Origin: a virus
DNA: 36,353 bases
UHGV virus genome: UHGV-0234394
Reading direction: 5' to 3' (one strand)
Below, in pieces: positions 14,050-35,128 of the stretch (positions are counted from its first letter, which is position 1; the number at the start of each line of letters is the position of its first letter). The notes under the pieces are model-generated. The model saw nothing but the letters and a program-made list of their open reading frames with translations, made no database searches and had not been told where the DNA came from. Position numbers and translations under genes: made by a program.

Positions 14050-14072
14050 TAAGACAAAGGAGCAAATTTTTT

Positions 14073-15125: not shown

Positions 15126-15170
15126 TCAACTCACGGCGGGCATCATGCCCGCCTGTAACGGAGAGAAAAA

Positions 15171-15971: not shown

Positions 15972-16072
15972 CGACTGACCCCGTCAGCGGGCGGCGTGCG
16001 CGGTGTTCCGGTTTGACTCCGTGACCGTTTACACCGCGCACCCACCGCCCGATTTTTTCAGGAGTGAACCCC

Positions 16073-16767: not shown

Positions 16768-16769
16768 CA

Positions 16770-18037: not shown

Positions 18038-18491
18038 TTCCCTGCGTGAAGCCATGACCCGTTCATGCCGATGGTGTCAGGCTAACCCGGAAAAATTCAC
18101 CATTTTCGTGGAGAGCGGCAACATTGAAACGACCGGAGAAACGCCCTCGTTTGTTTACCGCTATCAGATGGTGATGTTTGTCATGGATTACGCCGGAGAG
18201 CTGGACGACCTCACGCTGCCGCTGCTGGCGTGGTTATCCGAAAATCAGCCACAGTTGTTGCTCAATCCGGAGCGTAATCAGGACATCAAATTCTCCGCCG
18301 TTATCAATGACGATGACAGCGCCGATCTCCTGTTTACGCTCCCCCTGCGGGAACGCGTTCGCATCACGCGCAGCAGTCAGGGCACACCGCAGGCAGAACA
18401 CCTGCCGGAGCCAAAACCCCGCCTGCCATCTTCCGAAGGCGACTGGTCGCATGTATTCCAGGATGTGACGTGGGGTGAAAGCGATGGATAA
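18024..18491 (+). CDS. R: tail completion protein (P2 R-like)
   Basis: 155 aa, same length and position as P2 R. Confidence 0.75.
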   Translation: MLKTDSLREAMTRSCRWCQANPEKFTIFVESGNIETTGETPSFVYRYQMVMFVMDYAGELDDLTLPLLAWLSENQPQLLLNPERNQDIKFSAVINDDDSADLLFTLPLRERVRITRSSQGTPQAEHLPEPKPRLPSSEGDWSHVFQDVTWGESDG

Positions 18492-19119
18492 GGCATTCAC
18501 CCGCGTGGATGAAACCTTTGAGGCCATCCGCGACAGCCTGAATCAGCAGGCCATCAATAACATCGCCAGAAAGCTGGCACAGGATTTACGCCGCGCCCAG
18601 CAGGCACGTATCCGGTCACAGAAAGCGCCGGACGGGACCGCATGGACACCACGCAGACGCCGCGTAACCCGGATACAGGAGCGCATTCGCTTTATCTGGA
18701 ATAACGAAGCACGCACGCTGAAAAACTGGCATCACGACACGGGGAAATACGGGCGAACCATTACCGGGTGGGATGAGGATAAAAACAATATCCGCACGTT
18801 TTACCGGGATGACATCGACCGTTTTCTGGAAATACGCACCCGGCGCATCAACCAGGACAGCACAAAGCGCGTCCCCATGTTCGTAAAACTGCGCACCACC
18901 CGCTACCTGAAAGCACGAGCGGATGCTTCCGGTGTGACGGTGGGTTACAGCGGTGTGGCTGCACGTATTGCACGCGTTCATCAGTTCGGTGAGCGCGATC
19001 AGGTTGCGCCAGGCATTTTCACCGATTACCCGGTACGTGAGCTGTTGGGCATCAGTCAGGCAGATGAACGCCTGATTTATAACACGGTGCTGGGCCGGAT
19101 TGCGGAGGCTGTACGGTGA
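18484..19119 (+). CDS. S: tail completion / virion morphogenesis protein (P2 S-like)
   Basis: Track ORF 18475..19119; ATG at 18484; position between R and V. Confidence 0.7.
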   Translation: MDKAFTRVDETFEAIRDSLNQQAINNIARKLAQDLRRAQQARIRSQKAPDGTAWTPRRRRVTRIQERIRFIWNNEARTLKNWHHDTGKYGRTITGWDEDKNNIRTFYRDDIDRFLEIRTRRINQDSTKRVPMFVKLRTTRYLKARADASGVTVGYSGVAARIARVHQFGERDQVAPGIFTDYPVRELLGISQADERLIYNTVLGRIAEAVR

Positions 19120-19697
19120 GCGCAGAACTCATGCGACTGCTGAGCAACATCATCCGCACCGGGATCATCTCTGAAGTTGATGAGAAGTCCTGGCGCGTGC
19201 GCGTTCGCAGCGGCGAACTGGAAACAGGCTGGTTGCGATGGAACACCACGCGCGCGGGAGCCTTCAATGTGTGGCTGCCGCCATCACCCGGCGAACAGGT
19301 GGTAATTGCCTGCATTGGCGGCAACCCGGAAACCGCCATGATAATTGGCAGCCTGTGGAGTGATGCCAATCCGGCCCCCGGCAAAAGCCTGAAAGAAATC
19401 GTGGTCACAGCGCCTGACGGCGCGGTGTTCCGCTACGATGCGGACGCAGGTGCACTGAGCGCCACCGGAATCAGAACCGCCACCATTCAGGCCGGAACGG
19501 GCGTGACGCTGGACACCCCCACCGTCACCTGCACAAATCATCTGAAGACGGCAACGTTTGAGGTGACAGAAGGCGGAACCCTGAGCGGCAATATCTCGCA
19601 CAGCGGCGGTGATTTCACCTCCAACGGTGTGACGCTGCACACGCACAAACACAGTGGCGTGAAGAGCGGCGGCGACACCACAGGAGGCCCGCAGTGA
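19116..19697 (+). CDS. V: baseplate assembly protein V (central spike)
   Basis: 193 aa; position and Gly/Thr-rich C-terminal region typical of gpV. Confidence 0.8.
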   Translation: MSAELMRLLSNIIRTGIISEVDEKSWRVRVRSGELETGWLRWNTTRAGAFNVWLPPSPGEQVVIACIGGNPETAMIIGSLWSDANPAPGKSLKEIVVTAPDGAVFRYDADAGALSATGIRTATIQAGTGVTLDTPTVTCTNHLKTATFEVTEGGTLSGNISHSGGDFTSNGVTLHTHKHSGVKSGGDTTGGPQ

Positions 19698-20059
19698 GTG
19701 CACGTTTTCTGGGGATGAACCCCGAAGCCACCGGCACGCTCAGCGACACGGACCATCTGTGGAACAGCGTGAGGGATATTCTGCTGACACCGCTCGCCAG
19801 CCGGGTGATGCGCCGGGAATACGGCAGCCTGCTGCCGGATTTGCTGGATGCACCGATGAATGCCACCACCCGCCTTCAGTGCATGAGTGCCGTGGTAATT
19901 GCCCTGACGCAGTGGGAGCCGCGCATCGCCCTGAATGCCGTTGATATTCAGTGGGAGGCGGGCGGAAAAGCCGTTATCACTCTCACCGGCACGCTGACAG
20001 AAAGCCTGGAAACCGTACAGAACACACTGACACTCAGGAGCGACAATGCCAGCCGTTGA
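19694..20059 (+). CDS. W: baseplate wedge protein W
   Basis: 121 aa; overlapping start/stop with V and J as in P2. Confidence 0.8.
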   Translation: MSARFLGMNPEATGTLSDTDHLWNSVRDILLTPLASRVMRREYGSLLPDLLDAPMNATTRLQCMSAVVIALTQWEPRIALNAVDIQWEAGGKAVITLTGTLTESLETVQNTLTLRSDNASR

Positions 20060-20942
20060 CCTGTCGGAACTGCCGACACCACAGATTATTGAAACGCCGG
20101 ATTTTGAAGTCATCCTGGCGGAGGTGAAAGAAAGCATGATTACGGCATTCCCGCAGACACAACAGGCTGCCGTCCGGTCAGCCATGGCGCTGGAGTCCGA
20201 ACCGCTCACGGTCATCGCTCAGGCATTTGCACTGCGTGAGTTGCTACTTCGCCAGCGAATTAATGAAGGGGCAGCGGCCTGTATGCTGAGCCATTCCACA
20301 GGTGACGACCTGGATAACCTCGCCGCCAACATGAACACCGCGCGACTGGTCATCACACCGGCCACGGACACCGCGGAGGCCGTCATGGAAAGCGACACAG
20401 CCCTGCGGCTGCGTGCACAGTCTGCGTTTGATGGCCTCAGCGTGGCCGGTCCCACCGGGGCGTATGAATATTTTGCCCGCAGTGCCAGCGGTCAGGTGGC
20501 GGACGCACGCGCTACCAGCCCCGCACCGGCGGAAGTGGTGGTGGCGGTGCTGTCCACGGAAGGCGACGGTACGGCGACCGAAGCACTCCTGACGACGGTC
20601 AGAAATGCGCTGAATGCCGAAGACGTTCGCCCGGTCGGTGACCGTCTGACGGTGCAGAGCGCAGAAATCATCCGGTATCAGATTGATGCCCGGCTTTACT
20701 TTTATCCGGGGCCGGAGTCGGAACCTATCCTGAATGCCGCCAGAAACAATCTGGAAACCTGGCTTGCCGAACAGGGCAAAATCGGTCGCGATGTGGCGCT
20801 TTCCGCCATCATGGCCGCGCTGCATGTTCAGGGCGTTCAGCGCGTGGAACTGACCAGCCCCGCACAGAATATTGTTATCAGTGATGTGCAGTCAGCGTAC
20901 TGCACATCGTTTTCGGTCAGCGCAGGGGGAACCAATGAGTGA
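20046..20942 (+). CDS. J: baseplate protein J
   Basis: 298 aa, close to P2 J length; position. Confidence 0.8.
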   Translation: MPAVDLSELPTPQIIETPDFEVILAEVKESMITAFPQTQQAAVRSAMALESEPLTVIAQAFALRELLLRQRINEGAAACMLSHSTGDDLDNLAANMNTARLVITPATDTAEAVMESDTALRLRAQSAFDGLSVAGPTGAYEYFARSASGQVADARATSPAPAEVVVAVLSTEGDGTATEALLTTVRNALNAEDVRPVGDRLTVQSAEIIRYQIDARLYFYPGPESEPILNAARNNLETWLAEQGKIGRDVALSAIMAALHVQGVQRVELTSPAQNIVISDVQSAYCTSFSVSAGGTNE

Positions 20943-21474
20943 ACCGTCACTTCTCCCCCCTTCAGCCAGCGATTTCATGCGCTGCGTGGAGCGGGGGGCT
21001 ACCCGGTTGTCAGCATTACCTGTCAGCCTTAATCAGCTCTGGGATCCTGACACCTGCCCGGTGGCCCTGCTGCCTTATCTGGCGTGGGCGCTGTCCGTGG
21101 ACAGGTGGGATCGTGACTGGACGGAAGAAACAAAGCGCCAGGTGATCCGTGATGCCTGGGCAATCCACCGCCATAAGGGAACCATCAGCGCCATCAGGCG
21201 TGTGGTTGAACCCTTTGGCTATGTCATTAACGTGACGGAATGGTGGGAAACCGGCGATCCGCGAGGGACTTTCCGGCTGGACATCGGTGTACTGGATACC
21301 GGTATCTCCGCTGCGACCTATACCGAGCTGGAGCGCCTCATCGATGATGCCCGCCCGGTGAGTCGCCATCTTACCGGATTAAATATTGTGCAGGACATTT
21401 ACGGGGATGTGTACGCCGGCGGGGCGGTATTTTGCGGCGACACTATTGAGGTTTATCCGGGAGAGGTTGTCTGA
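20935..21474 (+). CDS. I: tail protein I
   Basis: Track ORF 20872..21474; ATG at 20935 overlaps J stop; about 179 aa as P2 I. Confidence 0.75.
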   Translation: MSEPSLLPPSASDFMRCVERGATRLSALPVSLNQLWDPDTCPVALLPYLAWALSVDRWDRDWTEETKRQVIRDAWAIHRHKGTISAIRRVVEPFGYVINVTEWWETGDPRGTFRLDIGVLDTGISAATYTELERLIDDARPVSRHLTGLNIVQDIYGDVYAGGAVFCGDTIEVYPGEVV

Positions 21475-21476
21475 AT

Positions 21477-24323
21477 ATGAAATATGGTGCCATTATCACA
21501 GCGGCTGGCGCTGCCAGGCTTGCTGCAGCCACAACAGCAACAGGCCAGAAGCTGAACATCACTCACATGGCCGTGGGAGATGGTAATGGAAATCTCCCGG
21601 AACCATCGGCCTCACAGACCGCCCTGAACAATGAAGTCTGGCGCGGGACGCTGAATAAAATTACACAGAACAGCAAAGCGCCAAATCAGGTGATTGCGGA
21701 ACTGGTTATTCCTCCGGAAGTTGGCGGCTTCTGGATGCGGGAGCTGGGGTTGTATGACGACAGCGGAACCCTGATTGCCGTCGCCAATATGGCAGAAAGC
21801 TACAAGCCGTTACTCGCCGAAGGTTCGGGGCGCTCAATGGTCTGCCGCATGTTCATCATCATCAGCGATATGAACGCGGTGAATCTGTCAGTGGACAGCA
21901 GCGTCATTGCCGCAACACAGGAATATGTTAACGAAGCCATCTCCGGCCTGCACCGCGCCATCATTGATGATGTGGTTCTTCAGCATAAAGTTGTCCACGA
22001 TATTGACTACACCGGGATTTTTGACGGCGCGGATAAGATGAGCCAGGGGTTCTGTATCTGTGATACGCCGCAGGGAACCCGAATGTTTCTGCATCAGCCT
22101 GTATCGGGTGGCGTAAGGATTGTTGAAACGATATTTAACCCTGACGGAGAAAACGAAAACCCGACGGTCATTTCGTTTTCTCCCGTTTTCGCTGATATTG
22201 GTCACCAGAGTATCGGGGCTGTATGTGAAGACGATCGCGTGATGCTGTATACCCCGACCGCTGACGGCAAGGGTGTGAATATCATCAACTGGAATGGGGC
22301 TGACACCAGTCTGACAGATGTCACCCGTACGGAGATTTTCACCTCTGACTTTTTTACCGGGGATGAAATTATAACGGTGGCATTGTCGGCAGACGGAAGC
22401 CTGTTAATTGTTCAGTCAGGTGATGAGGCCGTCCATCTTCATTACAACAGGGATGATCGCCGCACAGTTTATGTTTTCGATCGCGCCTCTCTGACGTTTA
22501 AACACCGGATTTATCTGTCCACCCAGCCAATGGTGTCGCAGGCATTTCAGGGGATGGCCAGCGATGGTCATTATCTTTTTGCTTATTACGGTTATACAGG
22601 CGTATTTCTGACTCACCGCATTGTTGTATATAACCTGTCAACGGGCGAAGTTGTCAGACAGTTCAATGTGGATGGCGTTCGTGCCAGGTATGGTCGCCAG
22701 AAAATGCTGGGGAATGCAGAGCTGGGGTATCCCGTTTTGCAGGAAGCCGAAGGGCTGGCTCTCCATAACGGAAAACTGTATCTGCTCGATATGGATTTCT
22801 GGTGTCAGACAGCCGATGTGGTTTCTTTTGAGGGGGCATACTTTGCAGCACGTGCAACAAATTTTTCTGGCCGTTCCCCGGTGAATCCATCTTACTGGAC
22901 GCCTACAGCATATGGAACGGCGGCTGCAACGAAATATGATGCCACGAAGTCTTATACGTGTGGTGTGGCGACAAAACGCAGCAAAGCTGTGGTTTCCGTG
23001 GAGGCTTACGACGGCACAGGCTATCTGGTGGACTCCGGCGTGGCGTTTCCTGATAGCCATGCCAGCCTTTTTCTGAGTCCCAATGCTGTAAATATAGCCC
23101 TGTCACCCAATGAAGACTTCCAGGTGGCAGCCTATGAGCAGAATCTGCGCTCGCATCGCCCGTTATTTGAGGTCAGAAAGGAGGCTCCGGATACAGACAC
23201 TTCTGCTGCTGTTTTTCGTTTGTTCGGGGATGCGTTCCGAACCGGAGAATACACAGGCCGCTTCGTTCAGTGGAAACACCGCCTGAACGACGTGCACGAT
23301 TGTCTGGAAATACGCGCTGACGTGGATTTGTTGAGCGGTGGCGGGATTAACCTTTACTCAATGAACGATACTCAGTCGGCGGGACGCACAAGGCTTTATT
23401 GCACCGATGGCAGTGAAACCTGGTCTGTATTATTGAGTCCGGTCTCGCCGTCATTTCATCCCGACCAGGACAAGGCAATGAATCTGGGGTCATCGCCAAA
23501 TCGCTGGAATGTGGCATACCTGCAGGGCGTGAATATTAAATCGGATGACGAAACCCAGAAGCGCATGGCCATCAGCACCACGCTGAAGGCGGGAGCTTTC
23601 CAGGTATCAACAGCCGGGAATCTGGGTATTTATGACGATTCTGCTGACGCTTATGTAATTGCAGCCCGTAGTGACGGCACTGCATTCATGCAGATGGATA
23701 CAGATATTAACGGTGCATTCCGGCCATCGGTTAACAATACCAGCGACCTGGGTGCGCCCAACAAAGCATTCCGGAGCGTGTATCTCTGCAACTCGCCGAC
23801 CATTGTGTCGGATGCGACGTTAAAGGATACACCGCGCGATGCGACGGCAGCCGAAAACGCGGCATTTGCAGAAATAGCACGGCTTCCGGGCGTGTGGCGC
23901 TGGTTACAGAGAATTGAGGAGGAGGGCGAGGACGCGCGTCTGCACGCCGGGCCGACAGTCCAGGCCGCGATAGCCGTGATGGAGAAACACGGTCTGGACT
24001 GGCGGAAATACAGCGCATTTTGTCTGGATTCGTGGGAAGCGGAGGAGGCACAGTACGAAGATATACCGGAAGAGTATGAAGATATTCCGGTTCAGCCAGC
24101 GATTTATTCGGATGAAGGGGAGCTGTTGAGCGGGACAACCCGTGTGCTTACCCGACAGGCGGAAAGGGTTCTTGTTCGTCCTGCAACCGAAGCAGGAAGC
24201 CGTTATCGCTTCCGGAAAGAGGAGCTTCTCTGGTGGTGTCTGCGTGCTGTTGTCAGCCAGGTGGATGCGCTGACAGAGAGTATCAGCGCACTTACCCGCC
24301 GTGTTGATTTACTGGAGGAATAA
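21477..24323 (+). CDS. H: tail fibre protein (P2 H-like N-terminus) with divergent C-terminal region and apparent intramolecular chaperone domain
   Basis: N-terminal about 150 aa closely resemble P2 H (ELVIPPEVGGFWMRELGLYDDSGTLIAVANMAESYKP); C-terminal part contains SDATLK at codon 778 (nt 23808). Confidence 0.85.
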   Translation: MKYGAIITAAGAARLAAATTATGQKLNITHMAVGDGNGNLPEPSASQTALNNEVWRGTLNKITQNSKAPNQVIAELVIPPEVGGFWMRELGLYDDSGTLIAVANMAESYKPLLAEGSGRSMVCRMFIIISDMNAVNLSVDSSVIAATQEYVNEAISGLHRAIIDDVVLQHKVVHDIDYTGIFDGADKMSQGFCICDTPQGTRMFLHQPVSGGVRIVETIFNPDGENENPTVISFSPVFADIGHQSIGAVCEDDRVMLYTPTADGKGVNIINWNGADTSLTDVTRTEIFTSDFFTGDEIITVALSADGSLLIVQSGDEAVHLHYNRDDRRTVYVFDRASLTFKHRIYLSTQPMVSQAFQGMASDGHYLFAYYGYTGVFLTHRIVVYNLSTGEVVRQFNVDGVRARYGRQKMLGNAELGYPVLQEAEGLALHNGKLYLLDMDFWCQTADVVSFEGAYFAARATNFSGRSPVNPSYWTPTAYGTAAATKYDATKSYTCGVATKRSKAVVSVEAYDGTGYLVDSGVAFPDSHASLFLSPNAVNIALSPNEDFQVAAYEQNLRSHRPLFEVRKEAPDTDTSAAVFRLFGDAFRTGEYTGRFVQWKHRLNDVHDCLEIRADVDLLSGGGINLYSMNDTQSAGRTRLYCTDGSETWSVLLSPVSPSFHPDQDKAMNLGSSPNRWNVAYLQGVNIKSDDETQKRMAISTTLKAGAFQVSTAGNLGIYDDSADAYVIAARSDGTAFMQMDTDINGAFRPSVNNTSDLGAPNKAFRSVYLCNSPTIVSDATLKDTPRDATAAENAAFAEIARLPGVWRWLQRIEEEGEDARLHAGPTVQAAIAVMEKHGLDWRKYSAFCLDSWEAEEAQYEDIPEEYEDIPVQPAIYSDEGELLSGTTRVLTRQAERVLVRPATEAGSRYRFRKEELLWWCLRAVVSQVDALTESISALTRRVDLLEE

Positions 24324-24325
24324 TT

Positions 24326-24610
24326 ATGGACTTAACACCGGTGTTCCATGCACTTTGTGCGGTGGCCACTCAGTTTCTGGTGGGTCTTTTTACCGGAAAC
24401 TGGGCTTACGGAGCGATAGCCGGTTGCACGTTCTTCATTGCGCGTGAACACACCCAGGCAGAATATCGCTGGATTGAAATGTTCGGGCATGGCAGGCGTA
24501 TGAATATGCCGTGGTGGGGCGGTTTTGACCCACGAGCGTGGGATATGGCAAGTCTGATGGATTTTGCAGTGCCGGTGGTGGCATGTCTGCTGGTCTGGCT
24601 GGTCGTATGA
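24326..24610 (+). CDS. small membrane protein (94 aa) at the position of P2 Z/fun
   Basis: Track ORF starting 2 nt after H stop; two or three hydrophobic segments; followed by an intrinsic terminator. Confidence 0.55.
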   Translation: MDLTPVFHALCAVATQFLVGLFTGNWAYGAIAGCTFFIAREHTQAEYRWIEMFGHGRRMNMPWWGGFDPRAWDMASLMDFAVPVVACLLVWLVV

Positions 24611-24622
24611 CGTAGCAGGAAA

Positions 24623-24647
24623 CAGGGGGATTTGCCCCTGTTTTTTT
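24623..24647 (+). terminator. intrinsic terminator
   Basis: Stem cagggg/cccctg followed by T7. Confidence 0.6.
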
Positions 24648-24778
24648 GTTCAGAATGCAGCCTTCACCATTCGTCTCTAATCGTATTCAGTAATTCGCCC
24701 GCAGAAACAAACTAAAATTCATCCCCCACATCACGCCACTGAAAGCAGACGGTAAACTCCAGATTTTCAAACCAGCGT
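24648..24778 (-). pseudogene. degraded duplicate of the 3' end of tail gene U
   Basis: About 130 bp, roughly 75-80% identical by eye to 25429-25560 (3' end of intact U) in direct orientation, including an identical 21-mer ttcagtaattcgcccgcagaa; in-frame stops in the copy. Confidence 0.6.
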
Positions 24779-25093
24779 CAGAAGTATTTAAATGGCACCA
24801 GATGTAATATGCAGGCGATTAATATGGTGTGCTTAAAGATCATAAAAGCGGGCAACATTAAAACTCTGGGCTGTGTAAATTACCGCCACTCATAATCAGA
24901 GATGAAAACAGAATTAAACTGGCGGCGTGGATTGTATACATAAAATAAGTTCAGTTGTTGACTTTCACTTCCGTGAGTTGATGAGGGTTATTACAATACA
25001 CCGGTATGATCTCTCCTCCTTAAAAGGGAGGACTTTTCAGAACGCAGAAATTATTTATAATCCCGTAGTGTTCTACACATGCCAACATTCTTT

Positions 25094-25118
25094 GCCCGCC
25101 CCGTGCGGGCTTTTTTTT
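25094..25118 (+). terminator. intrinsic terminator in a non-coding island
   Basis: gcccgc-cccgt-gcgggc followed by T8. Confidence 0.6.
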
Positions 25119-25208
25119 GCCATAAAGACACAGTAACAAACAGAATTGTAATCAGAGCAATAAAATCATGAAAAACATTTTCATTGATGACGATAACAAT
25201 TAAAAATA

Positions 25209-25238
25209 TTGCATTAAATGATTCCCGTTCAATATAAT
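25209..25238 (+). promoter_or_regulatory. sigma70-like promoter (TTGCAT-18-TATAAT)
   Basis: -35 at 25209-25214, -10 at 25233-25238. Confidence 0.45.
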
Positions 25239-25244
25239 CCCCCT

Positions 25245-25305
25245 GCAACCAGAAAAATTAAATCTTCACACAATGCATGTTGCCCTCTTTATGAGGGCTT
25301 TTTTA
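25245..25305 (+). ncRNA. candidate small RNA (about 60 nt) between promoter and terminator
   Basis: Promoter above followed about 45 nt later by hairpin gccctc/gagggc (25282-25298) and T-run; no credible ORF with SD. Confidence 0.3.
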
Positions 25306-25397
25306 TTTCCCGAATATCACCATTGCCATCATCGGGCGATTTATATATAGTCAGAATGTATTGACAACATTTTGCTTCTTTTCCATGAAGGCCATAA

Positions 25398-25427
25398 GGG
25401 AGTGCTTTTTACACTCCCTCTTTTTTT
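25398..25427 (+). terminator. intrinsic terminator abutting the 3' end of U
   Basis: gggagtg-loop-cactccc followed by TCTTTTTTT. Confidence 0.5.
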
Positions 25428-25429
25428 AT

Positions 25430-25894
25430 TCAGAATGCCGCTGTCGCCATTTTGTCTTTAAGCGTGTTCAGTAATTCGCCCGCAGAAGCAGACTGAAACC
25501 TCTCCCTCATATCCTCATCACACCGCTGAAAGCTGATGGAGAACTCAATCTTTTTTGCCTTTCCGTAACGATCCAGTTCGGAGCGGGTGGTCTGTAATCC
25601 CGTAATCACGTACATTCCGTAAATCTGCCCCGTGCCATCAATCAGCGGCCAGGGACATCCTGTGTAGGCCTGGGTGTTCAGTAGTGTCAGCGACACCTCA
25701 CCGCCGGTAATTTCCGGGTACAGCAAACCGGACAGCGTGATCTGGTCATCACCTGCACCGATATACTGCCAGGCTGCAGAGCGGTTAATGCGCTCATTTT
25801 TCACATGTCGCCATGTTTTGCTCTGCTGGATCTGCTGATGCGGCAGCGTGCGCAGCTCAAAAACAAACATGCCGTAGATCATCATCATGGTCAT
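25430..25894 (-). CDS. U: tail protein U
   Basis: 154 aa; size and position next to the tape measure as in P2. Confidence 0.75.
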   Translation of the reverse strand: MTMMMIYGMFVFELRTLPHQQIQQSKTWRHVKNERINRSAAWQYIGAGDDQITLSGLLYPEITGGEVSLTLLNTQAYTGCPWPLIDGTGQIYGMYVITGLQTTRSELDRYGKAKKIEFSISFQRCDEDMRERFQSASAGELLNTLKDKMATAAF

Positions 25895-25900
25895 GACTCC

Positions 25901-28741
25901 TCAATCTTTATCGTAAAAACTGCCACGCCCGGCACGGGCGCGCCGTTCCATTTCTGCCCTGACCATTTCACCGACCAGTTTCGCCAGTTCGCGGGGATTC
26001 TGCGTAACAACGTTATGCAGATGAACATGAATTTCACCACCAAATCCGGAGGCAACAGGCTCCCGGTTACGGGAAGTTACAGGAACTGATGCCACTGGAG
26101 ATCGTATGGCCTCCGCCACCGGGCGGGAGCTGGCCGCAACAACAGGGACCAGCGCCGGAGGCAGCGGAGCCGGGACCGCGGGTGTGATATTAATTGCGGG
26201 GGGCTTACTGACCTGCGCAATCTTCCGCTCCTGCCACTCCCCACGAACAGCAAGTGCGCGGGGCAGGTTCTTAAAGACAATATCGCCGGGGCCAATGCGT
26301 TTTTTCGTCTCATCAACCAGCTTACCTGTGTTATCAGCAATTTTGCTGAGTCTGCGCAGCGTACCGGTATTGCTGTCTGTGAGCGGTTTATTGTCTTTGG
26401 GGTTATCACCTCCGGTGCCATTGCCATTTTCCACAGGCTTCGGCGGATTGATTTTCGCCAGGTCCCCCTGAAGCAAGGCAACCTTGTCCTGAAGAATGGC
26501 CGCACGCTGTGCGTCTTCGATTTTCTTGCGCGCCCTTTCCGCTTCATCCGGAAGGACGCCAAGTTTTTCAAGTATCCACGCCAGCGTATCCAGCAGCATT
26601 TTTGCAGGTGTCAGAACAAGCTGTAACGCACCGCCAAGAACGTTACCGAATATCTCGCCAGCACTGGTACATTTATCCAGCGTTTCCTTGCTGGACTCCA
26701 TCGGTGACAGCAGCGATTTAAACCAGTTAAACACCTGGCTGATCCCGCTCCCGATTGCGTCAAAAACAGGACCAAACCGTTCAAAGGTTTCGCGCAACGG
26801 GGTCAGCCTTTCCATAATCCCGCTGAACACCCCGGCAAAAAATGCCCTGATGGGATCCCAGTATTTCCAGATAAGAACGGCAGCTCCGGCAAGCGCAGCC
26901 ACGATAAGACCAACCGGACTGAACAACGCCCCGATAGCGCCTCCCAGCAAAGAAACAGAACCCGTCACCATTCCCCACAGCGCAGGCAACACCCTGATGA
27001 CATTCATTGACCGGGTAAGAATGTCGAAACCAAGACGCAGGGTGGCCAGCTTCCCGTAAAGCCCCCCAATAACCAGCGACAACGAGCCAATCGTTGCTGT
27101 CATTGCCAGCAACGCACCGCCTGCTATCAGTAGCTGGCGCGTCAGTACCGGATGGGCCTGCGCCAGCGAGGTGATTTTTTCAAGCACCCGCGTGAGCCAC
27201 TGCGTGACAGAACGCAGCGGACCGTCAACCAGATCACTGATGCGAATACGAAGACCTTCCCATGCGCTGTCGAGATTTTTCAGGTCCCCATCAAGATTAT
27301 CGGCCATTACTTTTGCAACGCGATCGGCCTCTCCCCTTGCCCCCTGCAATTCTCTGGTCAGTTTTTGCAGTTCTCCTGAACCAGCCGCCGCAACAAGCGT
27401 CTGCAAACCAACGAACGCCTCTTCTCCGGCGATGTCCTTAAAGAAGGAGACCTGGTCCACCTGTCCGTATTTTTGTGTCGCCTTATAGAGATCAAGCAGC
27501 ACATCCTCCATCGGGCGCATTTTGCCTCTGGCGTCAGCAACTGACACCCCCAGCTCTTTCAGTGCATCAGCCGCAGCTTTTGGCGGTGATGCAAGGCGGG
27601 ACAGACTTGCGCGCATGGCCGTACCAGCATCGCTTCCGCGAAGACCATTATTGGCAAGCATCCCGGCCATGGCCGCCGCTTCTTCAAGACTGATACCAAG
27701 TTTTGCAGCAACCGGACCGGTATACTTCATGGTTTCGCCCAGCGCGCGTAAATCAGTATTGGTCCGGGTAAATGCTGCTGTCAGCGTATCACCCACCCGG
27801 TCCATTTGATCGGCTGTCAGGTTGAACTGTGTGAGGATATTGGAGCCTATATCAGCCGTCTCGCCGAGTTCGACGCCACCTGCCAGCGCCATATTAAGAA
27901 CACCGGGCAATGCGGCCTGAATGGCCTGCGGAGTAAAACCAGCCATTGCCAGAAAGCTCTGCCCACTGGCGGCATCACTCGCAGTAAACTGTGTTTCAGA
28001 GCCAAGTTTTAACGCCTGCTCACGCAGCGCCTTAAACTGCGGGCTGTTTTTGTCGATTCGCGTCAGTGCCTGAACGCGGGACATCTCTTTGCCGAACCCG
28101 ATCGCAGGCTGCAAAAAACGCCCGACAGCATAGCCGCCCGCCGCTGCCGCACCAATTGCCAGCGCACCACCTGTTTTCAGTTTTCCCGCGGTTTCCTGCG
28201 CGCGCGAATACCGCTCACGCGCCCGCGTTACACGCGCAAGCGCCTGCCGTTCGCGTTCAAGCTGGTTGTTGTACTGTTCGGTGCGTCTGATGGCCTGCTG
28301 GATGGTGTTATCGCTGCCTGTCAGGGAAATGCCGTGGCGTTTCAGCTCTCCGCCAAGTTCCCGCATTTTCTGAATTTCCCGTGTGCGCGATTCATTCAGG
28401 CGTTCAAGCCGGGTGCTTAACTGCTGCATCAGCTTTTGTTGTTTTTCGCTGAGCACTGTACCCGTGCGTTGTAACTGATTAAGGGCGTTAAGCTGGCGTC
28501 GTGCTTTCACGATACCCGCATCCGCTTTACTGACAGCGTCGCGGGCGCGCTCAAATGAACGCGCCTGACGCTCGAGATTTTTGATCGCCCCCTGCGTTCG
28601 CTGGATGGAGTCACCAAACTGCCCCATCAGGCGGCGGGCGTTTTCGGCAGGCCGGGTCAGCCTGTCAACGGCGCTGAAAGCGACCCGGATATCAAGAGTC
28701 TTCATTGTCTGCATTCCCGCTGCGAAGTGCCGCCCGCTCAC
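25901..28741 (-). CDS. T: tail tape measure protein (P2 T-like)
   Basis: 946 aa, Ala/Gly/Leu-rich with helical heptad-like regions and a hydrophobic central segment; start not refined. Confidence 0.85.
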   Translation of the reverse strand: MSGRHFAAGMQTMKTLDIRVAFSAVDRLTRPAENARRLMGQFGDSIQRTQGAIKNLERQARSFERARDAVSKADAGIVKARRQLNALNQLQRTGTVLSEKQQKLMQQLSTRLERLNESRTREIQKMRELGGELKRHGISLTGSDNTIQQAIRRTEQYNNQLERERQALARVTRARERYSRAQETAGKLKTGGALAIGAAAAGGYAVGRFLQPAIGFGKEMSRVQALTRIDKNSPQFKALREQALKLGSETQFTASDAASGQSFLAMAGFTPQAIQAALPGVLNMALAGGVELGETADIGSNILTQFNLTADQMDRVGDTLTAAFTRTNTDLRALGETMKYTGPVAAKLGISLEEAAAMAGMLANNGLRGSDAGTAMRASLSRLASPPKAAADALKELGVSVADARGKMRPMEDVLLDLYKATQKYGQVDQVSFFKDIAGEEAFVGLQTLVAAAGSGELQKLTRELQGARGEADRVAKVMADNLDGDLKNLDSAWEGLRIRISDLVDGPLRSVTQWLTRVLEKITSLAQAHPVLTRQLLIAGGALLAMTATIGSLSLVIGGLYGKLATLRLGFDILTRSMNVIRVLPALWGMVTGSVSLLGGAIGALFSPVGLIVAALAGAAVLIWKYWDPIRAFFAGVFSGIMERLTPLRETFERFGPVFDAIGSGISQVFNWFKSLLSPMESSKETLDKCTSAGEIFGNVLGGALQLVLTPAKMLLDTLAWILEKLGVLPDEAERARKKIEDAQRAAILQDKVALLQGDLAKINPPKPVENGNGTGGDNPKDNKPLTDSNTGTLRRLSKIADNTGKLVDETKKRIGPGDIVFKNLPRALAVRGEWQERKIAQVSKPPAINITPAVPAPLPPALVPVVAASSRPVAEAIRSPVASVPVTSRNREPVASGFGGEIHVHLHNVVTQNPRELAKLVGEMVRAEMERRARAGRGSFYDKD

Positions 28742-28958
28742 GCCAGCTAACCACTTCGCCGGGCGTCATCATGAAGATTTCGGCGGGCGACCAGTTAAAA
28801 ATGGCGGCGATATCTGCCACCAGATCTTCGATGTGCTCAAAGCACACCAGGGTGATTACGCTGCCGTCTCCTGCACGCTCTTCGCGCCAGAGTCTGGCTC
28901 GCTCATAAAATTTACAGCCACAGCGCACAACTGAATAAAATCGCGTGACGACATTTTT
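28692..28958 (-). CDS. E' frameshift extension of the tail assembly chaperone (E+E')
   Basis: Open in the -1 frame relative to E from 28958 downward; only entry point is the A7 run at 28954-28960 inside E. Confidence 0.5.
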   Translation of the reverse strand, partial: KNVVTRFYSVVRCGCKFYERARLWREERAGDGSVITLVCFEHIEDLVADIAAIFNWSPAEIFMMTPGEVVSWRERAALRSGNADNEDS

Positions 28959-29230
28959 TTAATCATCACTTCATCCAGTCGTGGCGAGGTCACGCGAGGC
29001 AACAGCGTGAACATGGTATCCGCTTTCAGATTCAGCACATCAGACAGCGACAGACCACGCAGGGATCCAGCCTGTTCAATAGCCCCGGTGATCTCCACAT
29101 ACGTGATTTTTTCGCCACCACGCTCAATTGGTCGGGTCAGTTTTACGCCACGTTCGACAGCCATAACCTCACCTGCCGTCACATCATCCGCCACGGTGTT
29201 ATTCCGGGTTTCAGTATCGATGTCTTTCAT
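28856..29230 (-). CDS. E: tail assembly chaperone (P2 E-like)
   Basis: 124 aa between tail tube and tape measure genes; contains the A7 slippery run near its 3' end. Confidence 0.7.
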   Translation of the reverse strand: MKDIDTETRNNTVADDVTAGEVMAVERGVKLTRPIERGGEKITYVEITGAIEQAGSLRGLSLSDVLNLKADTMFTLLPRVTSPRLDEVMIKKMSSRDFIQLCAVAVNFMSEPDSGAKSVQETAA

Positions 29231-29285
29231 CAGTTGTCTCCTTTTCAGTCAGAGGCGACGCACTGCGCCGCCTGCATATTACTTA

Positions 29286-29798
29286 TCAGCCAAGCCCAAG
29301 CGCGGAACGGATGCGGTCAGGCACAATGTCCTTGCCGTCCTTCCGGTAGATGTGGTTCAACAGGTCGATTTCCCACAGCGGGCGATCGTTAACGCTCAGC
29401 TTGTAGTAGGTGTTTTTGACAGCGTAAGTGTGTGATGTGGCTTCGCCCTGTTTGGCTTCCCCCATATCAATTTCCGTCACACGCCCGCGCATCTCGATTT
29501 CATACAGATCGCTTTCTGCATCGGTGTAGTATTCACCCGCAAAACGCAGCAGCGTGCCGTCAATCGTGCCGCCATATTTAAGGAACAGCGCACGAACAGC
29601 TCCCCCCATGACAAAACTCGCATCAAGTGCGGAGTCGTCCAGACCGAGATCAATACTTACTGCCCCCATCATGCCACCACCACGATAGCTGTCGGTTTTG
29701 CGCGTCAGTTTGGGCGGCGTGACGGATGTCACTTTACCCACTTCGTTTTCACCATCCACAAACAACGTAAAAAAGCGAAGATGTTTTGGTACAGCCAT
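29286..29798 (-). CDS. FII: tail tube protein (P2 FII-like)
   Basis: 170 aa; position after sheath gene. Confidence 0.8.
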   Translation of the reverse strand: MAVPKHLRFFTLFVDGENEVGKVTSVTPPKLTRKTDSYRGGGMMGAVSIDLGLDDSALDASFVMGGAVRALFLKYGGTIDGTLLRFAGEYYTDAESDLYEIEMRGRVTEIDMGEAKQGEATSHTYAVKNTYYKLSVNDRPLWEIDLLNHIYRKDGKDIVPDRIRSALGLG

Positions 29799-30982
29799 CA
29801 GGCACCTCCCAGCACCGCAAATGCGGGACCAAAGAATTCATCAGTAAACGACTGGTAAAGCTCCATGTCTTCCAGTGGCGGAACGGGCGTATATTTGTAG
29901 CGAATACGCACACGTCCCTGACGTAAATTCGTGGTGCCGTTATCCACCACGTCATACCAGCACTCCGCGCCAATCAGTTTCCCGGCAGTAACCAGCGAAT
30001 CCAGTTTTGCCCTGATGGCGCTGATAACATCCTTCACGTTCGCAGGTGTCAGTGGACTGTCGATGGTTTCAAACTGCGCTTCCGCAATTGAATCAGCCAG
30101 CACCTGTGCGGTTCGGGTATACACCTCAAAGATGTAGGCGTTCGTTTCCGGTGTGCGGTTGCCCCAGAAGCGGAACCCGTTGCGACGAATAATGGTCGTG
30201 ATTTCTTTGTTGTTGAGGCTGTTGGCATCGCTGTCTTCGGCCTGCAACGACCAGAACACATGCCTGGACATTCCCAGCACATTTTTAACCGGAACGTTGG
30301 ACAGCGATTTGTGCCAGCCCTGCTCATGGTCAATGTACGCACGAAGGCCGCACGCATAAGCAGGCGCGGGGAACGTTTCGTTTTTGCCACTTTTCGGGTT
30401 GTAGGCGATGAAGTCCGGCCATAAGAGCATCACCTCACGTTCGTTGAATTTCTGGCGGTAGGTAATCGCCTCAGCCATCGTGTTACAGCCGTGACATGAG
30501 GCATACACAAACGCGCGCAGTTTACCTGCAATCACGCACAGGGATTTTGTTACAGCCTCCGTGTCCAGCTCCGGCGCGGCCAGAATACGCGGACGGTATC
30601 CGATGCTTTCATCCTGCTCTGCAACAAGCAGCGCATACATCCCCGTATAGCTGCCGTCATCCTCAGAACCACCGATAACCAGTTGATCCTGCGTCTTTCC
30701 GTCTTCTTCTTTGTGTTCAGCCACGCGAACGACGATCACCTTTGTGCTCACCTGGTCTGCGATGGCCTTAAGCGCACGATAAAGCGTCCCCGTTGTCCCG
30801 CATTTTCCCAGCACGTCATTGACGCGGGTCAGCAGTGTGGGCTTATTCAGCGGGAACAGCTTCGCGTCCGCATCATCCGCCGTTGCCACGATACCGATAA
30901 CGCTGGAATCAACATCGTTAATCGCTGTTACCAGGTCGGTATTTTCCGTAACACGGGCACCATGAAAACGAGTTTCACTCAT
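29798..30982 (-). CDS. FI: contractile tail sheath protein (P2 FI-like)
   Basis: 394 aa; extensive resemblance to P2 FI (KLRAF, WPDF, EQGWHK, LIRR-GFRFWGNRT, YTPVPPLE motifs). Confidence 0.9.
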   Translation of the reverse strand: MSETRFHGARVTENTDLVTAINDVDSSVIGIVATADDADAKLFPLNKPTLLTRVNDVLGKCGTTGTLYRALKAIADQVSTKVIVVRVAEHKEEDGKTQDQLVIGGSEDDGSYTGMYALLVAEQDESIGYRPRILAAPELDTEAVTKSLCVIAGKLRAFVYASCHGCNTMAEAITYRQKFNEREVMLLWPDFIAYNPKSGKNETFPAPAYACGLRAYIDHEQGWHKSLSNVPVKNVLGMSRHVFWSLQAEDSDANSLNNKEITTIIRRNGFRFWGNRTPETNAYIFEVYTRTAQVLADSIAEAQFETIDSPLTPANVKDVISAIRAKLDSLVTAGKLIGAECWYDVVDNGTTNLRQGRVRIRYKYTPVPPLEDMELYQSFTDEFFGPAFAVLGGA

Positions 30983-31139
30983 AGCTTCAGCCCCTTGTAT
31001 CCGTTAAATGATTCGGCAACAATCATCACCCACCACGCGCGTAATCTCACCCCTGCGCCGTTCTTCCGACCCAGAGACAACAAAAAGCAGTAACCCCCTC
31101 CGCACGCACATGCGACCATGCCGCACAGGGAGGGAACAG

Positions 31140-32249
31140 ATGACCGACACCACCATGCAATTGCTCAGTCAGAGCACAGACCCCGTGAAAATGCCGGATT
31201 TTGATATTCTCGCGGAGGGTAAAACGCTGTCAGGCGTGGCAGAGCGCCTGATGAGCCTGTCACTGACCGACAACCGGGGATTTGAGGCGGACCAGCTCAC
31301 CATCACGCTGGATGATGCGGATGGTCAGTTGCAGCTACCGCCACGGGGCGCGCGCCTGACGGTTCTCATTGGCTGGAAAGGAGAACCGCTGACAGAAAAA
31401 GGCACTTACATTGTTGATGAAATCGCTCACGAAGGACCGCCGGACAGGCTGACTGTTTCAGCCAGAAGCGCAGATTTTCGGGATGAATTTAACGTTAAAC
31501 GTGAGGTGTCCTGGCATGATGTGACCGTTGAGCGTGTGGTATCCGCCATCGCTCATCGGTATGGTCTGAAACCGCAAATCAGCGAAATGCTGATGGATAT
31601 CGAAATCGACCACGCCGACCAGACCGAAGAAAGCGACATGTCCTTCCTTACGCGCATGGCGGAAATGCTGGGCGCAATCACCACGGTAAAAAGCGGTAAT
31701 CTGTTATTCATCATGCCCGGCGGTGGCGTGAACGCGCAGGGCCAGCCGTTGCCATCGTTTGCCATCACACGCAGCAGCGGCGATCGCCATCAGTTCCGCA
31801 TTGCTGACCGCGAAGCGTATACGGGGGTACGCGCTTACTGGCTTGATCTTAATTACGGGAAAAAGAAAAAAGTCAGCGTGAAACGCCGCAAACCGCCAAA
31901 ACCCAAAAAGGAGAAAAGCAGCAGCCGTGAAGGTGATTATATGGAAGGCGCGGAAGGCAATGTGTTTGTGTTACGCAAGACCTATCAGAACGAACAGGCA
32001 GCAAGACGCGCAGCGGCGGCAAAGTGGCAGCAGCTACAACGCGGAGCCGCATCATTTTCCATCACGCTGGCGCGTGGACGTGCAGAACTCTACCCCGAAA
32101 TGCATGGCACGGTAACAGGATTTAAAAGCGAGATTGATAATCAGGACTGGATTATTGCGAAAGCCGAGCACACCATTGATAACAGTGGCTTTACCACGCA
32201 GCTTGAGCTTGAAGCAAAAATTCCGGAATGGATCGTAGAAACAGAATGA
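31140..32249 (+). CDS. D: tail/late-control protein D
   Basis: Track ORF 31008..32249; ATG at 31140 with GGAGGG upstream; about 369 aa; position before ogr as in P2. Confidence 0.8.
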   Translation: MTDTTMQLLSQSTDPVKMPDFDILAEGKTLSGVAERLMSLSLTDNRGFEADQLTITLDDADGQLQLPPRGARLTVLIGWKGEPLTEKGTYIVDEIAHEGPPDRLTVSARSADFRDEFNVKREVSWHDVTVERVVSAIAHRYGLKPQISEMLMDIEIDHADQTEESDMSFLTRMAEMLGAITTVKSGNLLFIMPGGGVNAQGQPLPSFAITRSSGDRHQFRIADREAYTGVRAYWLDLNYGKKKKVSVKRRKPPKPKKEKSSSREGDYMEGAEGNVFVLRKTYQNEQAARRAAAAKWQQLQRGAASFSITLARGRAELYPEMHGTVTGFKSEIDNQDWIIAKAEHTIDNSGFTTQLELEAKIPEWIVETE

Positions 32250-32371
32250 GTAAATTAGATGCATTAGCTCAGTCATGAGTTTACTGATTACGTACGGCAC
32301 AGAAGCAGACCTGATAGTTTGCTCTGTGCCAGAAACGGACATTGCCGACATCATAATCGACACAAATTACA

Positions 32372-33157
32372 TCAATCACCTATGTGATTACGTTCTATAT
32401 ATCTTACAATCTTCTCTAAAGATTCAAATCCCCACCTCTGCATAGCATGTGGGAATTCTGTATATTCATAATCTTCTATGGTGAGATCCCATGTACTTTT
32501 CTTGAATTCACACTGATATAATCGCACAGTCTTGTTTAAAACCAACCCTTCTAACACACTGCTTTTCTTAATGATTTTGTCAATGTCTTTATTGTTAATC
32601 CCAATGTAGATAGCTGTTACCGAACTTAAATCAGTTATCTTGTCAATTAAAATATTTTCTTGCTTTTGTAATAGCCCCACTCGCTTTATTATTCTAACTT
32701 CTTCTTCATATTTCCAATGCAATGATTTAGTAAGCAATAATTTACTAATTACATCAGCGCTATAAATGTTTTCTTGACTGATTTTTAGTTTACTTTTTAT
32801 TCGACTCTCTAAATAATTAATGTCACCTTTCTGTGCCGTAATTAGGCATTTTTCTTCATCATCAAACCCTGCCCTTTCTGTGTCAATTGCTACAACAAAC
32901 CCCTGATGTTTATCAGCATAATGTGACCACATCAGTACATTGAGAGGATTTTTAGAAAGGCATAAGCAGGCAACATTTTGATTGATCTCCCCCCTCATAG
33001 CTAATGGTTCAAGCGATTCACCATCTAATGAAAGTTCATAGCCATAGCTTTCAAAAGGATCATTAAACTCACTATATGGAGTGAATTTTATAGAGATGTA
33101 ACCATCTTTAAAAAATCGTTCCAATGATGTCTTATCTATATATTTATACAGAATCAT
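32372..33157 (-). CDS. AT-rich accessory protein of unknown function (about 261 aa), N-terminal LYKY motif
   Basis: Track ORF 32372..33208 begins with TTG; first ATG gives MILYKYIDKTSLERFF; strongly AT-rich versus flanking D and ogr; convergent with D. Confidence 0.6.
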   Translation of the reverse strand: MILYKYIDKTSLERFFKDGYISIKFTPYSEFNDPFESYGYELSLDGESLEPLAMRGEINQNVACLCLSKNPLNVLMWSHYADKHQGFVVAIDTERAGFDDEEKCLITAQKGDINYLESRIKSKLKISQENIYSADVISKLLLTKSLHWKYEEEVRIIKRVGLLQKQENILIDKITDLSSVTAIYIGINNKDIDKIIKKSSVLEGLVLNKTVRLYQCEFKKSTWDLTIEDYEYTEFPHAMQRWGFESLEKIVRYIERNHIGD

Positions 33158-33352
33158 AATATATTCAGAATTAATTATAGGTGTTATCAGTATACAGTAC
33201 TTCAACAAGTAGATGTAAAGATCCCATTTAAACGTTCCTCCTCAATACGCGGATTAAACAAATTAAAGCATCTTACTCAAAATGGACCATCAGTTGGATT
33301 TAGAGCCAACACAACCTAGAATAGCGGCAGCACCACGTTAAGGGAGGTCGCT

Positions 33353-33613
33353 ATGTTCCGTTGTCCGCTTTGTGGCGCATCTGCCCGTATCCGCACCAGT
33401 CGTCCGGAAAATGATTCAAACACCGTGCGACAAAAGTATTACCAGTGCAACAACCTGGAATGCGGCGTATGCTTCTCAACACTGGAAGCTTTCCATAAAT
33501 TCACATCGAAACACGCCTCCGGCGTTCACTCTTCAGAAGGTATCCCGTGGCATGAGCTGCCAGCTTCACACAGGGGAAACAATCAGATGAGTTTGCCTTT
33601 ACCTCAGAATTAA
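33353..33613 (+). CDS. ogr: late transcription activator, Ogr/Delta zinc-finger family
   Basis: MFRCPLCG...YYQCNNLECG four-Cys pattern as in P2 Ogr; GGGAGG SD. Confidence 0.85.
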   Translation: MFRCPLCGASARIRTSRPENDSNTVRQKYYQCNNLECGVCFSTLEAFHKFTSKHASGVHSSEGIPWHELPASHRGNNQMSLPLPQN

Positions 33614-33701
33614 CAGGCAGAATTGCCGGAGTAACAAAAAAGCGATAGATTACGCGCGGGTGCCTTTCGGCTGATGGTCGGAGGGAATACCCGAAGGCCA
33701 G

Positions 33702-34147: not shown

Positions 34148-34194
34148 GATTTGTTATCATATCGGCAGCAGTAACCACACAAGAGGTGCCGCAA

Positions 34195-34392
34195 ATGACG
34201 CAAAATGTACGATGCAAAAATTGCAACAAACTACTTGCCCGCGCCTCATTTCACTACATTGAAATAAAATGTCCGCGCTGCAAAACACTTAACCAGATAA
34301 CGAGAGCCATCGAGCACCCCACACACATGAGGAGTTATGACCGTGGGGATCGCAATCCAGCACCAACCAGCACATACACCGGAACACACTAA
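34195..34392 (+). CDS. com: Com-like zinc-finger translational regulator
   Basis: MTQNVRCKNCNKLLARASFHYIEIKCPRCK...EHPT closely parallels Mu Com (RCKNCNKLL, IEIRCPRCK, EHPT); AAGAGG SD; 3' end overlaps the methyltransferase start. Confidence 0.8.
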   Translation: MTQNVRCKNCNKLLARASFHYIEIKCPRCKTLNQITRAIEHPTHMRSYDRGDRNPAPTSTYTGTH

Positions 34393-35128
34393 GGTTTATC
34401 AGACTGACAATGCCACGCTCTGTCGTGGGAATGCGCTGGAAATATTGCCGCTGATTGAGCCAGAAAGCATTGATGCCTTAATCACTGACCCGCCTTACAG
34501 TTCGGGTGCGACACACAAGGCCGGACGCACCAACCAGGGCAGCCATGCAAAATATCTGAACGGCGAGAACCTTCACCGCTTTGATGGGTTCGCGGGTGAA
34601 AACATGGACGCCCGTTCGTGGGCTTACTGGACACAATTATGGATGGCACAGGCACACCGCGCAGTCAGGCCGGGCGGTTATGCCCTGGTATTTACTGACT
34701 GGCGACAACTACCAGCTTTAACCGATGCGTTTCAGGCCAGTGGCTTTACATGGCGCGGCATCATTGCGTGGAACAAAGGGAGGGGGTCACGAACACCACA
34801 TACCGGGTATTTCCGGCATCAGTGCGAATACATCGTCTGGGGCAGCAAAGGCCATTTAGATAAATCGCCTTCGGGACCGTTCGACGGCTGCATGACGTTC
34901 CCGGTTATCTCGTCAAAGAAAATGCACCCGACCGGAAAACCAGAAGAACTAATGGCGGAACTGGTCAGGACTGTGAATAGTGGCGGAACAGTCCTTGATC
35001 CTTTTATGGGGTCAGGGACAACGGGTGTGGCTGCACTGAAAGCAGGACGCAAATTTATTGGTATAGAAACCAGTGATCATTATTTTGATGTAGCAACACA
35101 ACGGCTCAAAACGGCGATCGAACCATAA
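34337..35128 (+). CDS. DNA methyltransferase, beta-class (DPPY before FxGSGT), N6-adenine or N4-cytosine
   Basis: ITDPPYSS near the N-terminus and LDPFMGSGTTGVAAL near the C-terminus; alternative GTG start at 34343 has better SD spacing. Confidence 0.8.
   Translation: MTVGIAIQHQPAHTPEHTKVYQTDNATLCRGNALEILPLIEPESIDALITDPPYSSGATHKAGRTNQGSHAKYLNGENLHRFDGFAGENMDARSWAYWTQLWMAQAHRAVRPGGYALVFTDWRQLPALTDAFQASGFTWRGIIAWNKGRGSRTPHTGYFRHQCEYIVWGSKGHLDKSPSGPFDGCMTFPVISSKKMHPTGKPEELMAELVRTVNSGGTVLDPFMGSGTTGVAALKAGRKFIGIETSDHYFDVATQRLKTAIEP

Follow-up and report, generated by a model that had tools for sequence, protein, structure and literature searches.

The tail genes FI, FII, E/E', T and U of the P2-family prophage described here (UHGV virus genome UHGV-0234394; "the window" denotes the whole stretch of 36,353 nt that was analysed) form a block at 25430-30982 that is inverted relative to phage P2, and this orientation is the normal, fixed layout of a large P2-like group rather than a rearrangement of this prophage. 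The window belongs among the P88-like (Xuanwuvirus-type) prophages of the P2 family. The explanation that fits it best as a whole, and that we hold with good confidence, is an old inversion that became fixed, after which gene D would have come to be expressed from a new promoter, PD, sharing the activator dyad of PF, the promoter of the FI operon. The arrangement is already known in the sense that public annotations show it openly; the full-text literature searched yielded no mention of the inversion. Its value as a discovery is small, as the layout is already present in the viable, annotated phages P88, PhiSM, SEN5 and KSP20 and in roughly one in four complete E. coli genomes. What the shared-dyad reading adds to it is small and testable.

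Layout of the late genes

The genes on which the comparison is based are the following.

159-1178, minus strand: integrase
5275-8097, plus strand: replication gene A
10261-13058, minus strand: Q and P, on the same strand as in P2
up to 24323, plus strand: late genes O, N, M, L, R, S, V, W, J, I and H
21477-24323, plus strand: H (Pfam Phage_tail_fib)
25430-25894, minus strand: U, tail protein, at the end of the inverted block (Pfam Phage_P2_GpU, 9.5e-40)
25901-28741, minus strand: T, tape measure (Pfam PhageMin_Tail, 1.6e-56; AVS0756 and P88 annotation)
28692-29230, minus strand: E and E', tail assembly chaperone pair (weak Pfam match and annotation of relatives)
29286-29798, minus strand: FII, tail tube (Pfam Phage_tube, 2.1e-45)
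29798-30982, minus strand: FI, tail sheath, which opens the inverted block (Pfam Phage_sheath_1, Gp18_domIII_N and Phage_sheath_1C)
31140-32249, plus strand: D, baseplate hub / late control D (Pfam Phage_GPD, 3e-17; conserved ATG at 31140)
32372-33208, minus strand: DUF2971 gene between D and ogr
33353-33613, plus strand: ogr, zinc-finger late activator (Pfam Ogr_Delta, 5.1e-14)

Host flk adjoins beyond ogr. The T open reading frame begins at 28741, and the start annotated in a relative maps to about 28705. The E frame (28856-29230, minus strand) has a weak match to Phage_TAC_7 (4.6e-4), and AVS0756 and P88 have coding sequences annotated as 'GpE family' and 'tail protein' at the positions matching E and E'. 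The D frame is open from 31008, and its conserved start is the ATG at 31140, the position at which a preliminary description of this DNA had assumed it and the equivalent of the annotated start in P88. An Rfam search of the block and of the AT-rich island beyond U gave no match.

The late order is thus Q and P (minus), O through S, V, W, J, I and H (plus), U, T, E, FII and FI (minus), and D and ogr (plus), which is the P88-like arrangement. The canonical FETUD arrangement, in which FI-U and D share one strand, D directly follows U and the whole is co-directional with V-G, is absent. The preliminary description had reported the FI-U block as reversed, and the open reading frame listing together with the Pfam matches places U, T, E, FII and FI on the minus strand as it stated. 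Its premise for P2 is likewise correct, as in NC_001895 the V-G strand also carries FI, FII, E, E', T, U and D. The plus strand it assigned to D, H and the head genes applies to D, H and the genes from O onward, but not to Q and P.

Distribution of the inverted arrangement

Phage records already contain this layout. In P88, the minus strand carries U, T, E', E, FII and FI and the plus strand D, with 157 bp between FI and D. The inverted layout also occurs in SEN5 (Senquatrovirus), Klebsiella phage Kp4848-1 (Reipivirus) and Serratia phage KSP20, the last with divergent gpD-like and gpFI-like genes. When 24000-33700 was compared by megablast with phage records, the P88 group (P88, 500465-2, P884B11, PhiSM, 520873, PhiR44_2, Chuche and 503458) was collinear from 25502 onward at 91-95% identity. 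The FI protein of the window is 98% identical to that of P88, 70% to that of Kp4848-1, 55% to that of SEN5 and 45% to that of P2. Induction or spontaneous activity is known for P88 and PhiSM (PMC6456863), and the inverted layout is therefore functional.

For a broader sample, an FI alignment was run against a single genome of each bacterial species, and 80 loci were typed by tblastn. Every locus whose FI was at least 55% identical to that of the window was inverted, and every locus at or below 51% was P2-like and collinear. In the inverted loci, D and ogr lie divergently just upstream of FI, and S-V-W-J-I-H are convergent beyond U. Their hosts include Salmonella, Citrobacter, Enterobacter, Kosakonia, Klebsiella, Raoultella, Serratia, Brenneria, Pectobacterium, Erwinia, Pantoea, Providencia, Morganella and Xenorhabdus, among others. 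With the window, P2, P88, SEN5 and Kp4848-1 added to the species-representative loci, FI and D were both detected in 82 loci, 42 of them inverted and 40 canonical. Among 5426 complete E. coli genomes, 1358 have an uninterrupted FI-D junction (30650-31450), out of 1380 with any match to it, and 1571 have the P2-type U-D junction. A scan of IMG/VR with FI gave only relatives of 99-100% identity, which fixes the orientation rather than its breadth; all 78 of these close relatives with D detected were divergent, and none of these near-identical loci was in the canonical orientation.

Because the orientation is found across the whole lineage, it is a lineage trait and not a rearrangement. The preliminary description had presented it as a notable rearrangement unless related P2-like genomes should prove to share it as their common arrangement, and comparison found that they do. 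Enterobacterial P2-like phages fall into two groups of about the same frequency, which the presence or absence of the divergent FI-D junction tells apart cleanly. Neither annotators nor prophage tools that rely on synteny should treat the inverted orientation as a sign of rearrangement or misassembly.

Within the inverted group, the window is closest to the P88 type. P88 (Xuanwuvirus P88, NC_026014), the type species, and 500465-2, P884B11, PhiSM, PhiR44_2 and Chuche have the same late gene order and strands. The window and P88 are collinear over 10286-21422 and 25502-32259 with 91-92% nucleotide identity, and their FI-D spacers are both about 157 bp long. The two differ in the tail-fibre module, where the H of the window has a Peptidase_S74 chaperone domain and is followed by a small membrane ORF, and the window lacks the invertase and alternative fibre cassettes of P88. 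The degenerate U copy and island at the U end and the DUF2971 gene between D and ogr belong to the window and not to P88. P88 covers 72% of the prophage at 92% identity, or about 66% similarity, a one-directional figure based on approximate prophage ends; the ICTV guideline for a genus is about 70% nucleotide similarity over the genome.

The junction beyond U

Between H and U, where the two transcription directions converge, the window has two further features.

24636-24768, minus strand: degenerate duplicate of the U 3' end (the U' scar), found by local alignment, with a broken reading frame
24769-25429, no strand: AT-rich, ORF-poor non-coding island at the convergent H/U junction

The duplicated-U scar had been noted before and is real: at about 80% identity it repeats the 3' end of U (25416-25555), covering roughly the final 40 codons together with the neighbouring hairpin, and indels have broken its frame. 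The two copies form a direct repeat (79-83% identity, 780-781 nt spacing), not an inverted one. The GC fraction is about 0.42 in 24501-25500. The island holds no ORF longer than 69 aa, and both its promoter-like and its terminator-like sites are above shuffle means.

A degenerate U fragment and an AT-rich island placed exactly at the U-side boundary could be taken as the breakpoint of a recent, private event, whether a rearrangement or an assembly error, that flipped FI-U in this prophage. This would have to be reconciled with an identical junction in 1358 complete E. coli genomes, P88, other isolated phages and about 40 other species, and the distribution data refute it. The boundary features themselves also argue against it, since the 819-bp stretch of scar and island is present in only 72 of the 5426 E. 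coli genomes (where it is never annotated), is absent from P88 and SEN5, and contains a direct rather than an inverted repeat of the U end. A private flip or misassembly is hardly credible. For the same reasons, the scar and island are not a trace of the inversion; they are a later, sub-lineage event unrelated to it, in the form of later cargo or of fibre-module exchange at the H/U junction. Of the earlier proposal that the block boundary coincides with the scar and island, what survives is their physical adjacency. Elsewhere the same junction holds other material, namely the invertase and alternative fibre cassettes in P88 and only about 200 bp in SEN5.

The P88 invertase (26977-27564) lies immediately beside the U end, which raises another possibility, that the block is a programmed segment inverted by a Hin/Gin/Cin-type DNA invertase. 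However, the window contains no invertase: the longest ORF between H and U is 94 aa and has no Pfam match. SEN5 is likewise inverted without an invertase, and the one in P88 serves the neighbouring alternative tail-fibre cassettes. No credible inverted repeats flank the block, the best boundary pair (I16, 25920-25934 and 31228-31242) being 15 nt long, 87% identical and located inside T and D. A segment that switches should also be met in both orientations, and the other one was seen in 0 of the 78 IMG/VR loci, with the junction contiguous in 1358 of the 1380 matching E. coli genomes. Programmed inversion is thus extremely improbable.

Origin of the inversion

Neighbour-joining trees of FI, FII, U and D each recovered the inverted loci as monophyletic, and trees of J, I, V and W did not separate the inverted and canonical groups; all were simple midpoint-rooted trees without bootstrap, built on a sample picked by similarity to the FI of the window. 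As the baseplate genes J, I, V and W fail to split the groups, the inverted clade appears to be mosaic outside the block. Mosaicism of this kind is common to P2-like genomes and lends some plausibility to a different origin, in which FI-U was acquired horizontally from an unrelated contractile-tail element and inserted backwards. Protein identities do not point that way. Identity between the window and P2 ranges from 26 to 67% across all modules, and that of FI-U (33-47%, with U the highest at 47%) is comparable to that of Q, P, N, V and D (42-49%). Because FI-U is no more divergent than these genes, there is no sign of a foreign module, and the block is probably not a foreign graft. In addition, D groups the inverted genomes even though it lies outside the block, and the PF dyad has the same orientation as in P2 and a similar distance to FI. 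Replacement by a foreign module is accordingly improbable.

The simplest reading of these comparisons is a single old inversion of PF together with FI to U. The dyad upstream of FI has kept the polarity it has in P2 and a similar distance to FI, so PF probably moved together with the block. In such a scheme, a segment comprising the PF promoter, FI, FII, E/E', T and U would have been flipped once, long ago, and then fixed. PF and its Ogr-binding dyad would have been carried along with FI, and the upstream face of the dyad would thereby have been set back to back with gene D. D would have lost its place as the last gene of the FI operon and would now be expressed from a new rightward promoter, PD, that shares the dyad with the leftward PF, the dyad centre lying about 55 nt upstream of both predicted starts. 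If this is true, the inversion is a simple synapomorphy with which a large part of Peduoviridae could be classified, and the spacer offers a natural example of promoter capture after an inversion.

The FI-D spacer

Since D is no longer last in the FI operon, it needs its own promoter. The FI-D spacer is 156-158 bp long in 77 of 78 close relatives. Its elements, and the comparable dyad between P and O, are as follows.

30983-31139, no strand: divergent FI-D control region, 157 bp (alignment of 45 distinct spacers)
31062-31079, no strand: Ogr-type partial dyad TCT-N12-ACA, core of GTTCT-N12-ACAACAAAAAG, centre 31070.5; proposed activator site shared by PF and PD
31022-31027, minus strand: predicted -10 of PF, GATGAT, 46 nt from the dyad centre; predicted start about 31015
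31114-31119, plus strand: predicted -10 of PD, GACCAT (3/6 matches to TATAAT), 46 nt from the dyad centre; predicted start about 31126
13123-13140, no strand: second dyad, GTTCT-N12-ACAACAAAAG, in the divergent P-O spacer, centre 13131.5; top weight-matrix match, outside the matrix training set

The P2-family late-promoter consensus is TGT-N12-ACA, and four late operons have been described in P2 (PMC3931495). A search of 30983-31139 for Ogr-type motifs, as the preliminary description had suggested, found a single conserved TCT-N12-ACA dyad centred at 31070.5. In the window, the full sequence reads GTTCT-tccgacccagag-ACAACAAAAAG (31060-31087), with TCT rather than TGT as the left half-site. Across 45 distinct FI-D spacers, taken from loci with FI identity of 55% to 100%, T[G/C]T-N12-ACA aligned without gaps in all 45, the half-sites being conserved and the 12 nt between them variable. 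The exact consensus TGT-N12-ACA matched seven times in the window against 8.9 expected, with none at late-gene junctions; the literal form is uninformative here because the sites of this lineage are partial dyads (TCT-N12-ACA). TST-N12-ACAAC matched four times against 2.2 expected, and both junctions were among the matches. Only a weight matrix built from relatives proved discriminating among the motif searches tried. It was made from 33 sites of distant relatives, with the window and P88-like sequences excluded, and on both strands of the whole window it ranked the P-O spacer first (13121-13145, 18.1 bits) and the FI-D spacer second (31060-31084, 16.7 bits). Both scores exceed every value from 20 shuffles (best 15.1 bits, mean 11.9), and the matrix marks one dyad-like site above background within the 157 bp.

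Around the dyad, the spacer alignment shows conserved xAxxAT boxes 46 nt to both sides of its centre, a distance that the tie-break of the tally favours. The A..AT columns are conserved for PF and the columns for PD moderately so, and both predicted -10 boxes are weak (3-4/6 matches to TATAAT). The predicted starts would each lie about 55.5 nt from the dyad centre, and D has a ribosome-binding site of its own, GGGAGGG, after the predicted PD start. A sigma-70 consensus scan of the FI-D spacer found no promoter, which fits activator dependence without being evidence for it.

This symmetry has a counterpart in P2. The pP/pO pair of P2 has one annotated activator site whose dyad is centred on 3071.5, and the two starts, 3016 and 3127, are each 55.5 nt away. 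The geometry of the FI-D spacer matches that of pP/pO, and one activator site therefore probably drives both FI-U and D. The FI-D pair differs from pP/pO in that it would be a secondary creation of the inversion, and in that its starts are predicted where those of P2 are mapped. From conservation and geometry taken together, we lean towards one dyad driving both PF and a secondarily evolved PD. It is slightly more likely than not that a palindromic dyad which served PF only was co-opted for the orphaned D, and that all late genes of the clade are expressed from just two dyads, those of the P-O and FI-D spacers. The late genes would then run from two bidirectional Ogr sites, one serving P,Q and O through H and the other FI through U and D; P2, in comparison, has three activator sites serving four promoters. 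We infer the start sites, Ogr binding, Ogr dependence and bidirectional use of the dyad from the sequence, and the conserved single dyad makes bidirectional activation by Ogr a directly testable prediction. The spacer may also contain a second, more degenerate activator site.

A weaker but serious possibility is that PF and PD are independent promoters with their own activator sites, or that D is constitutive or expressed by read-through, so that the dyad serves FI only. The weak predicted PD -10 (GACCAT) would be explained in this way, and the stretch from the dyad to the D start contains a conserved GC-rich element, CGCGCGCG-CATG. However, the same CGCGCGCG element is also found in the P-O spacer, between the dyad and the predicted pP -10, and the spacer offers a single dyad above background, no sigma-70 consensus promoter and a symmetric spacing, 46 nt to each -10-like box, equal to that of P2 pP/pO. 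Independent control of D is for these reasons rather unlikely. In the case of the preliminary claim that each block must have its own late promoter, the need stands for D, while the spacer holds one activator dyad and two predicted divergent core promoters in place of two independent regions. The common CGCGCGCG element also led us to consider the FI-D spacer as a copy of the P-O spacer, but similarity beyond the dyad and the element is too weak to say.

Comparison with P2 and Smp131

The FETUD operon of P2 (FI, FII, E, E', T, U and D, transcribed from PF) has the same genes in the same internal order as the window, with protein identities of 33-49%. An Ogr-type activator is common to both, as is a dyad that precedes FI and has its TTGT half distal. 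In P2, D is last in the operon, overlaps the U stop and belongs to a unit co-directional with V-G, whereas in the window FI-U is reversed and D is a separate unit that has a ribosome-binding site and a predicted promoter of its own. The canonical features that the window has kept are the Ogr_Delta activator gene and two putative TGT-N12-ACA-type dyads, at 13123-13140 and 31062-31079, which are nearly identical to each other. A different reshuffling of late tail genes is known from the P2-like Stenotrophomonas phage Smp131, in which late-operon tail genes have been redistributed and TGT-N12-ACA promoters kept (PMC3931495). Smp131 differs from the window in that V and W have moved next to the FI group, with all genes still co-directional and no inversion.

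Tail-fibre module

The fibre module at 21477-24610 looks like a swap between phage families. H, the 948-aa tail fibre, combines an N terminus of P2 type with the intramolecular chaperone domain Peptidase_S74 at its C terminus. In P2, H is followed by a G-type fibre assembly gene, whereas in the window that place is taken by a membrane ORF, the DNA of which has 88-93% identity to lambdoid phages.

24326-24610: 94-aa membrane ORF, directly after H

AT-rich island flanked by the fibre module and U

Both promoter-like and terminator-like sites exceed their shuffle means across 24611-25429 (6 versus 2.7 and 6 versus 1.6, respectively), with 4 of the 6 terminator-like sites falling within the AT-rich island itself. 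Two short transcripts and a hydrophobic ORF are predicted here:

25034-25061 to 25094-25110, plus strand: predicted short transcript, promoter-like to terminator-like site, ~50-70 nt
25323-25351 to 25397-25419, plus strand: predicted short transcript, promoter-like to terminator-like site, ~50-70 nt
25051-25248, minus strand: hydrophobic 65-aa ORF

An Rfam search of 24611-25429 returned no match, and in the 72 E. coli genomes where the island was found, ST131 among them, it carries no annotation. The island could be a source of small RNAs, or it could encode a type I toxin-antitoxin pair.

Probable cargo gene and genes around ogr

About 11% of the query 24000-33700 is missing from most close relatives, and the alignment of Escherichia phage P88 to the window is interrupted between 32259 and 33313, a bracket around a low-GC island (GC 0.36-0.39) that holds a DUF2971 gene. 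The gene probably represents cargo, either a moron or of a defence type. Beyond ogr, the annotation of the relative AVS0756 gives a com/mom-like pair and a hok/gef gene, and host sequence is represented by flk:

32372-33208, minus strand: DUF2971 gene, between D and ogr
34186-35128: Com-family regulator ORF and DNA methyltransferase, downstream of ogr
downstream of ogr: hok/gef gene
35358: start of host flk

Late-gene starts and promoters

In gene O, the longest ORF starts at 13180, a position overlapped by the predicted -10 box of pO, the late promoter in the divergent P/O spacer (region 13059-13213). The start annotated in P88 corresponds to a window ATG at 13213, ahead of which lies a ribosome-binding site; the start at 13180 is probably wrong. 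Further along, S and V overlap at 19116-19119 (region 18475-19697), and no Ogr-type dyad-like site scoring above background was found upstream of V. The lineage of the window may be without a separate pV, with V to H transcribed via read-through from pO. Within D, one sigma-70-like match was found, where 0.1 was expected in shuffles:

31206-31233, minus strand: CTGACA-16-GAGAAT, sigma-70-like promoter match within the 5' part of D, directed toward FI

Early region and atypical relatives

The early region carries two Rfam matches at gathering level, both upstream of the replication gene:

4346-4420: isrK, 64 bits
4456-4543: C4 antisense RNA, 83 bits

Among relatives, a P88-like prophage was found on a 226-kb contig (NZ_JBQPOM010000071.1) of a genome labelled as a Firmicute, 'Vagococcus sp. 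WN89Y'. Its FI is 97% identical to that of the window, and the assembly is probably contaminated or mislabelled. Two other loci have unusual layouts, perhaps through additional rearrangement or because prophages lie in tandem: in Trabulsiella odontotermitis, I and H lie downstream of U on the strand of FI-U, and in Rahnella sp. AA, J, I and H are placed after D.
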